Positions 21,270-24,899 of a stretch of DNA of 25,810 bases are shown in pieces (position 1 is the first letter of the stretch; every line of letters begins with the position of its first letter). Below the pieces are notes generated by a model. It did no database searches and had not been told where the DNA came from. It worked only from the letters and a program-made list of their open reading frames with translations. The stretch comes from a virus (taxonomy: Duplodnaviria > Heunggongvirae > Uroviricota > Caudoviricetes). The translations under genes and the position numbers were made by a program. Where the stretch lies: positions 1 through 25,810 of the IMG/VR virus record IMGVR_UViG_2548876964_000006. The stretch is one strand, 5' to 3'.

Positions 21270-21515
21270 TTGGCAGAACGTGTTGATGATGCAGAGCTGA
21301 GCATGAATCAGTTAGAAGCTCTCAAAGACATGGCCATCGATAACATCAGAAAGCAGGCACAGGTCGTGAGTCAGGTATTTACAGGGAAGTGTCGTTACTG
21401 CAATGAACCGATTGAATCAGGCATCTATTGTGACGCTGAGTGTGCGCAATGGCACAGGGAAGAGCAGGCCGCAAAACAGCGTAAATATGGCATGCGACCG
21501 GCAGGATTTGACTGA
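21270..21515 (+). CDS. small zinc-finger protein, possibly TraR/DksA-like
   Basis: TTG start after GAGGA; CRYCNEPIESGIYCDAEC; cysteine spacing is not canonical for DksA/TraR. Confidence 0.45.
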   Translation: MAERVDDAELSMNQLEALKDMAIDNIRKQAQVVSQVFTGKCRYCNEPIESGIYCDAECAQWHREEQAAKQRKYGMRPAGFD

Positions 21516-21517
21516 TT

Positions 21518-22096
21518 GTGTTGCGCTTTACTGAGGAAGAGTTTCAGGCTTTTAGTGAGCGTCGAAATAAGGGGCGGTCCAGGCCAAAAACCAAAAAGGA
21601 TCCATTCTTATCGCTTGCGCCGGTAAAAGAAGTTTCTCCACATGCGAAGGCACTTGCAGCACTTGCAAAGAACCCAGACCTGCGCGACGGAAATTGCGAG
21701 CACTTCGAGCAGGTTTTCATTTTTGATTACTTCGAACGCAAGCACCCTGACATCTATGAGCTGTTGCATGCAACGCCTAACGGAGGGAAACGTTCAAAAG
21801 CAACCGCCGGGAAAATGAAGGTTGAAGGGCAGAAAAAAGGTTATCCGGACATGAGTCTCGATAAAGCATGCGGTATTTATCACGGCATGCGAATTGAGCT
21901 TAAAGAACCAAATGGTAAAGCCCCGACGAAAGAGCAGATCGCCTGGATGCGCAGGCTTAGAGAGGAAGGTTACTACGTCGTTCTTGCGTATGGTGCAGAA
22001 CAAGCGATAACCGCCATCCTGGAATACATAAGCCTTAAAAAGGGTGAGGCTATTGAGCATGTATTGAACGGCGACAAGTGGTTGTATGCTGCTTAA
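21518..22096 (+). CDS. VRR-NUC domain nuclease (PD-(D/E)xK)
   Basis: GTG start; HATPNGGKRS, KGYPDMS and IELK motifs. Confidence 0.6.
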   Translation: MLRFTEEEFQAFSERRNKGRSRPKTKKDPFLSLAPVKEVSPHAKALAALAKNPDLRDGNCEHFEQVFIFDYFERKHPDIYELLHATPNGGKRSKATAGKMKVEGQKKGYPDMSLDKACGIYHGMRIELKEPNGKAPTKEQIAWMRRLREEGYYVVLAYGAEQAITAILEYISLKKGEAIEHVLNGDKWLYAA

Positions 22097-22162
22097 AATA
22101 ATAAATTAATTAGTACATATGCGCCATTTGATATAGCGCACATTAACATCGGGAGAATAATC

Positions 22163-22318
22163 GTGTCATCCAAGGCTAATTATGAATCGCTGGCATCGAT
22201 CATGCCGCGTAATGAACAGGAAACAGATGCTGTAGTGGACCCTGTAATCGCTGAAATGAATGCTCGCCTGGAGGCTGAATTTGCAGCTGAGAATGAACAT
22301 ACCACGCAGGGCGACTAG
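22163..22318 (+). CDS. small acidic protein (51 aa)
   Basis: GTG 7 nt after GGGAG; overlaps the next gene start by 26 bp. Confidence 0.3.
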   Translation: MSSKANYESLASIMPRNEQETDAVVDPVIAEMNARLEAEFAAENEHTTQGD

Positions 22319-22922
22319 GACTGTTTTTTGTGTCGGTAGCGGTCCGTCACTCACTCGTGAGGACTGTGCTGCTATAGAAAAAACTGGCTGTTCAATCATC
22401 GCGGTTAACAATTCCTGGCAGATGTTCGATGACATTTATGCCTTATACGCCGGTGATTTGTCATGGTGGAAGCAATACGGATCCACCATACCGGGAGGGA
22501 GATTCCGCAAAGTGACAGCCAACCTGGCGGCGGCGAAATCATTTTCGTTGGAGTACAGGCGATATTGTGGACCGGCGGAAGGGGTAAATAGCGGCGCGCA
22601 GGCTATCAGTCTGGCTGCTGAATCAGGGGCTGAAGTAGTGGTATTAGTCGGCTATGACTGTTCTCTGCAAAACGGCCTTCATTGGCATGGCGCGCACCCT
22701 CAAGCCCTACGGAATCCAACGCAGGTGTCTATTTCAAAATGGCAACAGCAGTTCCTGGATACCCGCAAAAAACACGCAGATTTACATATTTTGAATGCAA
22801 GTAGGAGCAGTGCAATTCAATGTTTCCCAAGAATAAATTTAGAGGCAGTGATCGCGTTATTATCGTCGGCAGTGGCCCAAGCGCCGCAAACTTTGTTGCG
22901 CCGCGCGGAGTGCCGATTATAG
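22293..22922 (+). CDS. GSGPS-motif Rossmann-like protein, paralog A (DUF115/MptE-like or GT42-like)
   Basis: VFCVGSGPSL...IIAVN and NSGAQAISLAAESGAEVVVLVGYD resemble the MptE/Maf/Cst-II fold; paralog of 22820..23446. Confidence 0.5.
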   Translation: MNIPRRATRTVFCVGSGPSLTREDCAAIEKTGCSIIAVNNSWQMFDDIYALYAGDLSWWKQYGSTIPGGRFRKVTANLAAAKSFSLEYRRYCGPAEGVNSGAQAISLAAESGAEVVVLVGYDCSLQNGLHWHGAHPQALRNPTQVSISKWQQQFLDTRKKHADLHILNASRSSAIQCFPRINLEAVIALLSSAVAQAPQTLLRRAECRL

Positions 22923-23446
22923 CGGTCAATGGGGCCATCGACTGGCTGAACCGCGCTTCTTATTTTTTCACACTTGATCCATCGCCAGACAATATGCGGC
23001 GCGTTGGTCGTGGCCGCCGTCGCCGTGGTGTTTGTTATTGCATGGCACTACCCGATGTTAAAGAACGTGAAGTCAGAGGCGGCGTTCTGTGCTTCCGTCG
23101 TGTGGCTGAACGTGGCATGGAGCCAAAAAATACGAATTCTCCCGAGTGGTGGGCGTGGCGCTGGTCCGCACATTTCGGACTTTGCGAAGATGAGAATGAA
23201 ATTGCCAGCGGCAATAGTGCATATGGTGCTCTGAACCTGGCTTTCCATATCGGATTCAAACATGTCGCCCTGGTGGGCGTTGACGCTACACAAGAACCAC
23301 GCGTTCACTCCGGCGGCACGCCAAAAAATCTAAGTCACCTGCCTTTGTTATTCCAGTCTGCGCGTGAACGGATTGACGTTGTTTCATGCGGGAAAATGGG
23401 AGGTATTCCGCAGATGACTCTTAAAGAATGGCTGAAGAATACATGA
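22820..23446 (+). CDS. GSGPS-motif Rossmann-like protein, paralog B
   Basis: [10 protein letters not shown]...IIAVN and [24 protein letters not shown]; overlaps paralog A by 103 bp in another frame. Confidence 0.5.
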
Positions 23447-24120
23447 TGGCACCAACAATTTATCACCGTATCGACGGTACCAAATACAGGAATATCTGGG
23501 TTGTTGGTGATCTGCATGGTTGCTACACCAGACTGATGTCCGAACTCCATCGTGTGGATTTTGACCCGGCGCAGGATTTACTGATATCGGTCGGCGACCT
23601 TATCGATCGCGGTACTGAAAATGTCGAATGTCTGGAACTATTGCAGATGCCCTGGTTCAGGGCAGTGATGGGGAACCATGAGCGGCTGATGATTGATGCG
23701 TTAAGTCCTGATGGCAACGTGAATAACTGGCTAATGAATGGCGGACAATGGTTCTTCATGCTGGACACTGATCAGGAAATATTAGCCAGGGCGCTGGTGG
23801 AGCTGGTAAAGCGTCTGCCCTATATCATTGAGTTGAACACCGGGCAAGAAACTATCGTTATAGCCCATGCCGACTATCCGGATAATGAATACCAATTCGG
23901 TAAGGAGGTGCCGCTTTTCAACGTTGTCTGGGCGCGCGAGCGTATCAGTGATTCGATGGATGATATTGGTGGCGAAATTTCGGGCGCAGATCGTTTTATC
24001 TTTGGTCACACTCCGGTGAAAAGCCCGAAGACATTCTGGAATCAGCAGTATATCGACACTGGTGCCGTATTTTGCGGAAACCTGACATTGATGAAAGTGA
24101 AAGGTGATGGTGCAGCATGA
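23443..24120 (+). CDS. serine/threonine protein phosphatase, lambda-PPase/calcineurin-like family
   Basis: GDLHG, GDLIDRG and GNHE metallophosphoesterase motifs; start overlaps the upstream stop. P1 encodes a comparable Ppp. Confidence 0.75.
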
Positions 24121-24818
24121 AGATTGCTTTAGTTCTTCGCTCTGGTGGTGACTATAACGCTTCCGATGTGCAGTGGCTGGTTAATCAACTGCCAAAAGGC
24201 TATGAAATTATTTGCCTGACAGACCTGAAGCGTTTACATGTACCTGGCGTCAAAGTTGTCCCATTGATCAACCAGTGGCAAAAGTGCCGTGGCTGGTGGG
24301 CGAAAATCGAGTTGTTCCGACCGGATATAACCGATGATCTGTTCTATCTGGATTTGGACACGGTTATTGCCGGTGATATACGCCCAATCCTTGAGAATCC
24401 ACCAACCTGCTTCACCATGCTTAGGGATTTTTACCATCCACAATATCGTGGTAGCGGTGCCCTGTGGATACCAAATAGTGTAAAAGCACATATCTGGAGT
24501 TCATTCTGGCAAGATCCGGAAGGTTGGATTGCTCGTTGTGTCACTACTGAGTGCTGGGGTGATCAGGGATTCTTACGGAAGGTTATGGGCGATGATACAC
24601 CAGCATTTCAGGATCTGTATCCAGGATGGTTTGTAAGTTACAAGGCCGATGTTGTGGAACCTGGTTCAAAATATGCGAGCGCGCGTTACTCCAGGGGGAA
24701 TGGGGCATTACCAAAGGACTGCCGAATAATCTTTTTCCACGGCAAACCGCGGCCTCGCGAAGTGTCAGAGGATTGGCTTCCCCTCATTAGCTCGTTTTTT
24801 GAGCGAGAATCAGAATAA
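24117..24818 (+). CDS. GT-A fold glycosyltransferase-like protein (GT8-like)
   Basis: [13 protein letters not shown] (DxD), GDQGFL and [10 protein letters not shown] resemble the GT8 DxD / DQxxLN / HxxGxxKPW motifs. Confidence 0.5.
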
Positions 24819-24819
24819 T

Positions 24820-24849
24820 ATTGCTCTAATAATTCCATATTTTTAAAAC
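24820..24849 (+). promoter_or_regulatory. C1-operator-like site (ATTGCTCTAATAATTCC, 14/17) with -35 TTGCTC and -10 TAAAAC
   Basis: Third copy of the 30-bp promoter architecture; the predicted start site falls in the loop of the adjacent hairpin. Confidence 0.45.
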
Positions 24850-24874
24850 GTGATGTACACTCATCACGTTTTTT
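24845..24874. terminator. bidirectional terminator hairpin flanked by inverted operator-like copies
   Basis: AAAACGTGATG / CATCACGTTTT stem with A/T runs on both sides. Confidence 0.55.
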
Positions 24875-24885
24875 ATTAGAGCAAT
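24869..24885 (-). promoter_or_regulatory. inverted C1-operator-like site (ATTGCTCTAATAAAAAA on the minus strand, 14/17)
   Basis: Forms a symmetric pair with the site at 24820 around the hairpin. Confidence 0.4.
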
Positions 24886-24899
24886 CTACAAGGTGCACT

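Follow-up and report, generated by a model that had tools for sequence, protein, structure and literature searches.

The phage P1 genes pmgO, pmgP and pmgQ form a widespread candidate glycosylation cassette with a possible virion-protein acceptor

Phage P1 has been a workhorse of Escherichia coli genetics for seventy years and its 'putative morphogenetic' block is still without a known function. Here, we consider seven genes of this block, as found in IMG/VR virus record IMGVR_UViG_2548876964_000006, and in particular the three named pmgO, pmgP and pmgQ. The window, by which we mean the whole stretch of 25,810 nucleotides analysed, is from a P1-like punavirus. Between positions 21000 and 25000, it matches phage P1 (AF234172 / NC_005856) in one ungapped piece of 4001 bases, with 98.5% identity. 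Each of 19 records spans at least 80% of this 21000-25000 query. Seven open reading frames (ORFs) are tightly packed on the plus strand and, by alignment, these are P1 pmgL, pmgM, pmgN, pmgO, pmgP, ppp and pmgQ. A preliminary description, made from the letters of the window, reported the same gene coordinates, packing and overlaps; the list of ORFs and the P1 match confirm them. It also raised the question of a relationship to uncharacterised pmg genes of P1; the genes prove to be pmgL-pmgQ themselves, and not mere homologs. The genes are as follows.

pmgL, 21270-21515, plus strand: 81 amino acids, a DksA/TraR-like C4 zinc-finger protein
pmgM, 21518-22096, plus strand: 192 amino acids, with a probable C-terminal VRR-NUC nuclease domain
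pmgN, 22163-22318, plus strand: 51 amino acids, an acidic protein
pmgO, 22293-22922 (annotated start 22260), plus strand: Maf/DUF115/MptE-fold protein, first member of the cassette
pmgP, 22820-23446, plus strand: pmgO paralog in the same fold family, second member of the cassette
ppp, 23428-24120, plus strand: lambda-PPase/PrpA-type Ser/Thr metallophosphatase
pmgQ, 24117-24818, plus strand: predicted GT8-like GT-A glycosyltransferase with DxD, GDQ and HGxPRP motifs, third member of the cassette

Genes pmgL and pmgM are 2 nucleotides apart. A gap of 66 nucleotides, containing the operator named Oppp in the P1 annotation, is found 5' of pmgN. The remaining junctions are overlaps: 59 nucleotides for pmgN/pmgO (using the annotated start), 103 for pmgO/pmgP, 19 for pmgP/ppp, and 4 for ppp/pmgQ. 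Note that alignments of PmgO homologs start near Met12 of the annotated ORF (position 22293), and the annotated start at 22260 may be overlong. In the P1 record, the pmgL-pmgQ operon has a late promoter and is located between baseplate/tail genes and pmgR/pmgS. The genes are known, already have fold-based labels, and are not a new object. The RefSeq and PHROG names 'alpha-2,3-sialyltransferase' and 'glycosyltransferase' are transferred names, which reflect the same similarities found here. What appears new, given the literature searched, is that the pmgO-pmgP-pmgQ triad is coupled, widespread and typically embedded beside a capsid gene. In the record for phage P7 (AF503408, 81834-84531; our locus L163) the last five genes are called hdmA, hdmB, hdmC, ppp and hdmD, for 'head morphogenesis'. 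The same record lists Ppp as a 'putative head morphogenesis phosphatase' and HdmB as similar to orf7 of phage D3; it gives no basis for the head assignment. In what follows, other loci and proteins are identified by L and P numbers.

PmgO and PmgP have a common signature. In PmgO, this reads FCVGSGPS...IIAVNNS...NSGAQAISLAAESGAEVVVLVGYDCS and, in PmgP, IIVGSGPS...IIAVNGA.... In both proteins the N-terminal xVGSGPS...IIAVN is followed later by NSx...LVGxD, and these motifs show little or no variation in alignments of 44 and 45 homologs. Direct comparison of the two proteins by BLASTP gave a weak match (E 0.003) to the N-terminal motif alone. Profile-profile alignment of the two families, using hhalign, gave a probability of 97.9% and an E value of 5.6e-13 over 155 columns. 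We conclude that, on the strength of these profiles, pmgO and pmgP are true, old paralogs. The family is small; a PmgP profile, searched against 1.84 billion representative proteins, detected 617 clusters (at 50% identity) with E<=1e-3. Both proteins are basic, with isoelectric points of 9.2 (PmgO) and 9.8 (PmgP). These values do not discriminate between a membrane or lipopolysaccharide (LPS) acceptor and a soluble one.

The fold of PmgO and PmgP is that of the Maf/MptE/GT42 catalytic domain. The sole Pfam family matched is 'MptE-like'. For PF01973, with a gathering score of 34.6 bits, PmgO (23.7 bits) and PmgP (20.9 bits) are each under the cut-off. PmgP-family members P0407 (44.1 bits) and P0361 (44.6 bits) exceed it, and numerous homologs of both proteins have a precomputed PF01973 match. 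Searches of Protein Data Bank (PDB) sequences with the family profiles returned nothing usable, with the threshold set at E<=1 for PmgO and raised as far as E 10 for PmgP. Hence, structure prediction was required to assign the fold. Structure-based comparison agreed with the MptE/DUF115/Maf/GT42 assignment. For instance, the alignment to the Maf flagellin glycosyltransferase of M. magneticum (PDB 5mu5) spans 164 residues, with 16% sequence identity. Maf is much larger, at 632 amino acids, compared to 209 for PmgO and 208 for PmgP. Its catalytic core is flanked by extra N- and C-terminal domains, and this multidomain architecture is not seen in PmgO or PmgP, which are catalytic cores of about 200 amino acids only. 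At the sequence level, neither protein falls in the GT42 family of sialyltransferases (Cst-I/Cst-II), which use CMP-Neu5Ac (cytidine monophosphate-N-acetylneuraminic acid) as donor.

The PmgQ protein, of 233 amino acids, is different. As a single sequence it has no Pfam match at E<=1, including to PF01501 (Glyco_transf_8). An AlphaFold2 model of PmgQ has a predicted local distance difference test score of 95. When this model was compared to the PDB using Foldseek, the top 35 matches were all glycosyltransferase family 8 (GT8)-type enzymes, including 6mw5, glycogenin, LgtC, GlyE and WbbM. The E values were between 2e-8 and 5e-7, with template modelling scores of about 0.5-0.6 (about 0.56). Similarly, a family profile made from 47 homologs matched PDB sequences of 6mw5, the Skp1 alpha-galactosyltransferase (E 1.4e-8), and glycogenin (E 3e-5). 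In the alignment of these homologs D79, L80 and D81 are invariant, and G148, D149, Q150, H208, G209, P211 and P213 are conserved in at least 90% of cases, corresponding to GDQ (148-150) and HGxPxP (208-213). These are the most conserved positions of all and they align with GT8 motifs in 6mw5 and glycogenin. The prediction that PmgQ is a GT8-like, DxD-dependent GT-A glycosyltransferase is thus supported. The GT-A fold, the DxD and DQ motifs, and the C-terminal H-x-G-x-P motif are common to PmgQ and GT8 enzymes. PmgQ differs in being shorter, lacking the C-terminal domain of LPS GT8 enzymes, and belonging to a separate, mostly phage-borne, family. Taken together, these data bear out three readings of the preliminary description: tandem GSGPS paralogs with VGSGPS...IAVN and SG...LVGxD motifs, their fold (genes 22293-22922 and 22820-23446), and the GT8-like nature of the protein encoded at 24117-24818.

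The order PmgO-PmgP-PmgQ recurs in phages that are unrelated to P1 (L003, L004, L055, L059 and L161). In lambdoid contig L003, the cassette is between the lysis genes and terminase, as it is in Citrobacter phage phiNP. In L004, a PAJU2-like siphophage, the cassette is between head-completion and gp10-like genes, with an S-adenosylmethionine (SAM) methyltransferase gene separating O and P. The arrangement in Pseudomonas prophage L161 is TerS-TerL-portal-ClpP-capsid-PmgO-PmgP-PmgQ-...-head completion protein. Here, identity to the proteins of the window is 63% for PmgP, 42% for PmgQ and 35% for PmgO. Gene fusions tell the same story. Protein P0361 is PmgO joined to PmgP, P0369 and P0433 are PmgP joined to PmgQ, and P0450 is PmgQ joined to PmgP. 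Methyltransferases are sometimes included: P0419 is a fusion of PmgQ, PmgP and a SAM-methyltransferase, and P0460 is a methyltransferase joined to PmgP. We also scanned viral contigs with a PmgQ profile and detected 583 relatives. Of these, 80 were kept, including 32 that are divergent (37-43% identity). In 22 of the 32 divergent viral loci the PmgQ-like gene has a Maf-like gene no more than a few genes away, in most cases immediately 5' of it. At least one more divergent Maf-like gene (L086:7549-8136) escaped our hidden Markov models (HMMs). Since the order is conserved, and the fusions occur in both orientations, it is highly probable that PmgO, PmgP and PmgQ act in one pathway, as a coupled glycosyl-transfer unit.

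Some unusual variants were also seen. Locus L156 (8667-10021) has tandem PmgQ-like genes and L078 (9989-11254) has an ORF of 421 amino acids that contains PmgQ. P0474 and P0493 apparently combine a PmgP-like domain with a second, divergent, Maf-like domain; the former was identified by eye and the latter by a weak match to the PmgO HMM.

Many of the related cassettes are in head modules. In L053, L054, L058 and L074 the order, according to Pfam matches, is major capsid gene, small ORF, Maf-like gene, PmgQ-like gene, and then head-tail connector or head-completion genes. In L161 and L162 the cassette likewise follows the capsid gene. The same is true where the capsid gene is of the T7 type (L084 and L086) or the lambda-E type (L078). 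The SU10-like locus L088 has a cassette gene between capsid and adaptor genes, L085 has the cassette inside a Mu-like head module, and L087, plus a contig from ENA, have it inside structural modules. The same placement was seen in L131, L137 and L156, whose contigs had been assigned to Zixibacteria, Planctomycetia and Woesearchaeota by binning. For 16 non-redundant viral loci, we collected 149 proteins encoded nearby. Of the 25 Pfam families seen most often among them, almost every one is a head, connector, tail or terminase family, apart from FkbM methyltransferases, a DNA methylase and an F5/8 type C domain. In Pseudomonas phage D3 a PmgO-like gene, orf7, is directly 3' of the capsid gene. 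PAJU2 encodes a PmgO homolog, ORF010 (L165:5974-6543; HMM E 5e-81), which the depositors labelled 'structural protein'. No PmgQ-like gene was detectable in D3 or PAJU2.

The genes inserted in cassettes are, judged by their family matches, of glycan-tailoring types. They include SAM and FkbM methyltransferases (L004, L077, L086 and L156), a PIG-L deacetylase (L078), and a gene with a weak sulfotransferase-like match.

Further details of these loci are as follows. In L088 (4209-14326), a sugar-nucleotide biosynthesis island of about 8 kb surrounds the PmgQ-like gene. This encodes a hexapeptide acetyltransferase, DegT aminotransferase, epimerase/dehydratase, PfkB kinase and SIS isomerase, together with a cytidylyltransferase-like gene, a split thiamine pyrophosphate enzyme and a radical-SAM enzyme. 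The PAJU2 stretch has the label 'structural protein' on three coding sequences only, which are ORF010, the capsid protein and ORF015. The label also appears in Klebsiella phage Eowyn, where it may have been copied from PAJU2. Three HK97-like loci have a capsid-adjacent 'mini-Maf' protein of 126-136 amino acids (L054:5182-5592, L053:9588-9998 and L074:6661-7041). The small ORF that separates capsid gene from cassette, encoding 81-99 amino acids, was found in six places (L053:9298-9552, L058:9308-9571, L077:8249-8494, L054:4859-5140, L074:6287-6586, and D3 orf6.5 at L166:4837-5124). In five of the six, a globular N-terminus precedes a tail rich in Ser, Ala, Pro, Thr and Gln (for D3 orf6.5, the first 60 residues were read). 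These small ORFs match only PHROGs of unknown function, and their products could be acceptors of the glycan or could decorate the head. As general acceptors we rejected them; the S/T-rich tails are suggestive in one HK97-like group, are not general, and are absent from P1.

The regulatory elements annotated or predicted around the P1 genes are listed below.

Region 5' of pmgL, 21163-21233, plus strand: coordinates transferred from P1 record AF234172, to which the window is 99% identical here, with no gaps
Late promoter LPpmgL (Lpa-type), 21163-21181: has its -22 element in common with divergent LP26, P1 annotation
C1 operator O26/Op82, 21196-21212, minus strand: P1 annotation and match to the operator consensus
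C1 operator Oppp (Op83), 22103-22119, minus strand: P1 annotation; adjoins predicted promoter PpmgN, upstream of pmgN-pmgQ
C1 operator OpmgRa, 24820-24836, plus strand: match to the operator consensus and P1 annotation
Hairpin and U-run, 24845-24878, plus strand: 11-bp stem (24845-24872) between OpmgRa and OpmgRb
C1 operator OpmgRb, 24869-24885, minus strand (inverted): match to the operator consensus and P1 annotation

The P1 record also has predicted sigma-70 promoters 5' of pmgL. A promoter scan identified a promoter-like site at 22071-22099. In our operator scan of the window, Oppp had no match to the consensus within 3 mismatches. The scan found 7 C1-operator-like 17-mers, compared to 0.06 expected by chance; others in the window are at 1403-1419 and 14714-14730, and also at 11411 and 13926. 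At the end of the operon, the preliminary description placed a terminator flanked by operators, and a hairpin with a U-run does lie between two C1-operator matches. The hairpin has a predicted folding energy of -13.4 kcal/mol (z -6.2). It was overlooked by a simple terminator scan because A-U pairs lengthen the stem into the U-run. At this position, the P1 record annotates both operators and promoter PpmgR, for the next operon, and no terminator.

The reading that we favour is that pmgO-pmgP-pmgQ constitutes a lytic-phase glycosylation cassette acting on a virion protein. We give this statement, as a whole, a probability of about 0.4. According to the P1 annotation, transcription would be from C1-repressed promoters and the late promoter LPpmgL. 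C1 repression, combined with a late promoter, should leave the cassette silent in the lysogen and active in lytic growth. PmgO and PmgP would transfer an ulosonic acid, with CMP-Kdo (Kdo, 3-deoxy-D-manno-octulosonic acid) as the candidate donor. We suggest this donor because characterised glycosyltransferases with this fold (Maf, GT42 and WaaZ) use CMP-ulosonic acids, and CMP-Kdo is the sole such donor known in E. coli K-12. To our knowledge, CMP-Kdo is the only CMP-ulosonate that E. coli K-12 makes; we know of no synthesis, in this host, of the Maf donors CMP-pseudaminic acid and CMP-legionaminic acid. PmgQ would be a hexosyltransferase, presumably with a uridine diphosphate (UDP)-hexose as donor. 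The three soluble enzymes would assemble a short glycan on the acceptor, in an order of transfer that we can only infer. With a head, or head-proximal, virion protein as acceptor, particles would be released already glycosylated. The glycan would be dispensable for plaque formation in the laboratory. The products of ppp, pmgL, pmgM and pmgN, namely a protein phosphatase, an RNA polymerase-binding-type zinc finger, a VRR-NUC nuclease and a protein of unknown function, would be co-transcribed passengers. Our choice of acceptor is tentative. A virion protein is the most likely candidate, given that cassettes lie in head modules of many lineages, that tailoring enzymes accompany them, and that mycobacteriophages offer a precedent.

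That precedent is the closest known system. Mycobacteriophage-encoded glycosyltransferases, according to two papers that cite Freeman et al. (2023, Cell Host Microbe), modify the C-termini of capsid and tail-tube subunits (PMC10877033, PMC12619734). In both cases, the enzymes are phage-encoded and soluble (by prediction, for P1) and provide dispensable accessory functions. Among relatives of our cassette, glycosyltransferase genes are also found in, or next to, virion structural genes. In mycobacteriophages, methyltransferases take part in virion glycosylation too. The differences are that the hosts here are Gram-negative and that the enzymes are two of the Maf/WaaZ fold plus one GT8-like protein. 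In addition, the cassette of P1 lies apart from its capsid gene and, for P1 and its relatives, the glycan is a prediction from genes.

If P1 virions are glycosylated, there are several implications. Phage-encoded virion glycosylation would extend from mycobacteriophages to Gram-negative phages, for which there is no such report in the literature searched. P1 would also provide an easily engineered model for studying the process. Furthermore, the recurrent capsid-adjacent cassettes of Pseudomonas, Rhizobium, Halomonas and many uncultured phages would be accounted for. Finally, there would be relevance to phage therapy, since surface glycans can alter antibody recognition, stability and adsorption. 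A far more general statement is doubtful. This would be that tailed phages of Gram-negative bacteria, including P1, decorate a protein of the head, or of another part of the virion, with a short glycan resembling the LPS core, by means of a widespread and hitherto unrecognised system with capsid-adjacent genes in many phage lineages. Kdo-type residues would be added from host CMP-Kdo by two WaaZ/Maf-fold enzymes, with extension by a GT8-like hexosyltransferase and, sometimes, methylation.

A number of observations weigh against glycosylation of the P1 virion. First, the P1 cassette is not beside capsid gene 23. Second, in two papers on P1 cryo-electron microscopy, terms for a glycan or extra density were looked for and not found, although this is an absence of mention and not a test. 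Third, the P1 virion proteome paper does not mention 'glycos', and PmgL to PmgQ are not named there among P1 virion proteins (PMC9024508). The latter fits with these proteins being enzymes and is no positive support. Fourth, the MptE and thiamine diphosphokinase (TPK) folds are nearly as near to PmgO as GT42, which weakens the case for glycosyl transfer by PmgO and PmgP. Fifth, mini-Maf proteins align only to residues 49-184 of PmgO and do not have the GSGPS...AVN nucleotide-loop half. Sixth, where bacterial chromosomes encode a PmgQ homolog by itself, the genes around it are varied and not structural. Finally, in a rough neighbour-joining tree, with no support values, P1 PmgQ clusters with enterobacterial copies located at the lysis-terminase junction or elsewhere away from the capsid gene, as well as with a gene from a chromosomal LPS-core locus of Pectobacterium (L098). 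In the literature searched, we found no link between DUF115/Maf proteins and prophages or phage capsids, and neither a biochemical test of pmgO-pmgP-pmgQ nor a report of a P1 glycan.

The strongest rival explanation, which is live but improbable in our estimation, is that the cassette modifies the LPS core during lytic growth. The receptor for P1 is glucose of the LPS core. On the cytoplasmic side of the inner membrane, PmgO and PmgP would behave like WaaZ and add extra Kdo to the inner core, followed by addition of a hexose by PmgQ. New LPS would then lack, or mask, the outer-core glucose so that fewer progeny are lost on debris, or superinfection is reduced. Overexpression of waaZ truncates the outer core. 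Reading the sequences of WaaZ and PmgP reveals four motifs in the same order: xSGPx, AVNG, TxD, and a small-residue helix with GxD. WaaZ is also similar to PmgO and PmgP in size class and basic isoelectric point, and the P1 host can supply its donor, CMP-Kdo. Unlike pmgO and pmgP, waaZ is chromosomal, and its product acts on lipid A-core. With an alignment of two WaaZ sequences, hhalign gave probabilities of 85% for PmgP (31 columns) and 45% for PmgO (81 columns), indicating local similarity; with a single WaaZ sequence, the probability against the family profiles was 16%. PmgP scored 12.1 bits (E 0.09) with TIGR04437 (WaaZ_KDO_III), far below the cut-off of 200, and PmgO had no match to TIGR04437 in our NCBIfam search. 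The E. coli outer-core enzymes WaaJ and WaaO are of the GT8 family, and the hhalign match of WaaJ to the PmgQ profile is weak (probability 30%). The C1-controlled P1 promoters would permit expression early in lytic growth.

The Pectobacterium locus is instructive here. In Pectobacterium sp. B1J-3 (L098:5574-11639), a chromosomal LPS-core locus encodes, in order, a WaaP-type kinase, a sulfatase-family protein, GT8+GT8C, an MptE-like protein of 310 amino acids, a PmgQ-like protein (261 amino acids) and GT25. The MptE-like protein is 26% identical to E. coli K-12 WaaZ (E 7e-15), and its PmgQ-like neighbour is 38% identical to PmgQ. This WaaZ-like and PmgQ-like pair hints that the genus modifies its inner core in a way not yet characterised, and that the phage cassette may have come from such a locus. 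The grouping of P1 PmgQ with the L098 gene, in the rough tree, counts in favour of LPS-core modification. Even so, this was the one LPS locus among 71 species-level genome matches, and PmgQ is without the GT8 C-terminal domain present in the L098 LPS enzyme. In many phages the cassette is in late structural operons, beside the capsid gene. This weakens the explanation because LPS made late could not replace receptors already displayed. In addition, cassettes occur on viral-type contigs binned, with some uncertainty, to lineages that would not be expected to make LPS (Saccharibacteria, L135, and Woesearchaeota, L156). Knockouts plate normally and, in the P1 record, the genes are repressed in lysogens. 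The latter bears on the earlier suggestion that an LPS change might mediate superinfection exclusion. For lysogens the fit is poor, and we reject lysogenic conversion, because C1 operators precede pmgL and pmgN in the P1 record. Overall, synteny across phages favours a virion protein as acceptor. Were LPS remodelled instead, this would be receptor editing in lytic growth, not in the lysogen, by soluble WaaZ-related phage enzymes. Either outcome would provide the first biochemical handle on the small Maf-like family (about 600 clusters at 50% identity).

Rather less probable is that PmgO and PmgP are not glycosyltransferases. They could be ATP-dependent diphosphokinases, like MptE or TPK, or be nucleotide-binding or virion-associated proteins without enzyme activity. 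In that case PmgQ would be the only sugar-transferring enzyme, and its acceptor might be a product or a partner of PmgO/PmgP. The 'MptE-like' label of the sole Pfam match is consistent with this, as is the missing nucleotide-loop half of the mini-Maf proteins. The same can be said of the depositors' label for PAJU2 ORF010, and of the PmgO-like genes in D3 and PAJU2 that have no detectable PmgQ-like companion. The explanation sits less easily with the fusions and tight gene order that join PmgP to a GT8-like enzyme and to methyltransferases, an association usual in glycan assembly. Nor does it account for the motif layout in common with WaaZ.

We think it very unlikely that the target is DNA, with glycosylation or hypermodification countering restriction or other nucleases. 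P1 DNA behaves normally when cut or sequenced, and host DNA is packaged by P1 during transduction; both count against the idea. No base-hydroxymethylating or TET-type enzyme was found in any context examined, and the neighbouring genes are structural, as opposed to being involved in replication or nucleotide metabolism. In favour, PmgO and PmgP are basic, and some cassettes are near terminase and DNA methylase genes (L003 and phiNP). Furthermore, in other phages, GT-A enzymes resembling family-8 LPS transferases glycosylate 5-hydroxymethylcytosine in DNA, according to a preprint (bioRxiv 10.1101/2023.12.21.572611). Anti-restriction glycosylation of DNA had been one proposal of the preliminary description. 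It is disfavoured, since a set of 24 viable single-gene P1 knockouts, of non-essential genes, had no plaquing defect and unchanged antirestriction (PMC9024508). A later table of gene essentiality cites the same deletion survey for each of the seven genes (PMC10695390). The newly named virion proteins in the deletion study were PmgC and PmgG only (PMC9024508).

The remaining genes, ppp, pmgL, pmgM and pmgN, are outside the conserved cassette by the criterion of gene content. A lambda-PPase-type phosphatase, a zinc-finger protein and a VRR-NUC nuclease had all been recognised at the outset, and database searches concur. Ppp matches the Pfam family Metallophos (PF00149), over residues 22-197, with 60.2 bits compared to a cut-off of 21.5. 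It also matches phrog_246 ('NinI-like', E 1.5e-113) and NCBIfam PRK11439, with 274 bits, which is below the equivalog cut-off of 326. Among the seven proteins, real NCBIfam matches were obtained for Ppp alone. PmgL matches phrog_54 ('DksA-like zinc-finger protein', E 1.7e-13). For PmgM, the match to VRR_NUC (PF08774) has an E value of 1.9e-4 and, at 21.9 bits, is just under the cut-off of 23.8; residues 103-173 match phrog_5702 ('Holliday junction resolvase', E 4.8e-27). PmgN belongs to phrog_2350, a family of unknown function. Searching the seven proteins with PADLOC defence models returned nothing meaningful.

The metallophosphoesterase domain of Ppp is common to lambda PPase, PrpA and PrpB. 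Unlike these, Ppp is inside a glycosylation cassette, and in the P1 lineage only. Briefly, ppp is between pmgP and pmgQ in P1 and close relatives, and is retained in P1-like L045. It is missing from P1-like L048/L049 and from all non-P1 cassettes examined (including L003, L004, L161 and L162). This distribution indicates that ppp is a lineage-specific insertion, and we rejected Ppp as an integral member of the pathway. Among the cassette loci examined, we detected pmgL and pmgM homologs in P1-like elements only, and a pmgN homolog in L045 only. Hence, the glycosylation module initially proposed is supported for pmgO-pmgP-pmgQ and not for the remaining genes; that three transfer folds and a phosphatase make one pathway is not supported. 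That all seven genes, including those for Ppp, the VRR-NUC nuclease and the zinc finger, encode a single modification pathway is highly improbable: tight packing, ppp/pmgQ and pmgP/ppp overlaps that suggest translational coupling, common promoters and operators, and the keeping of ppp in L045 are outweighed by these patchy distributions, by fusions that join only O, P, Q and methyltransferases, and by Ppp being 64% identical to lambda phosphatase (P1 record), yet lambda not being among the phages with PmgO, PmgP or PmgQ relatives.

Essentiality of the genes has been assessed in two ways. By CRISPR interference (CRISPRi), pmgL, pmgM, pmgO, pmgP, ppp and pmgQ are non-essential, and the deletion survey cited in the same table lists all seven genes as non-essential (PMC10695390). 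The conflict concerns pmgN, which is essential by CRISPRi with dCas12a (efficiency of plating 1.4e-2) and non-essential by deletion (PMC10695390). Simple polarity does not account for the CRISPRi result, because all of the downstream genes are dispensable. Note that pmgN is located just 3' of Oppp and PpmgN, and overlaps the annotated start of pmgO.

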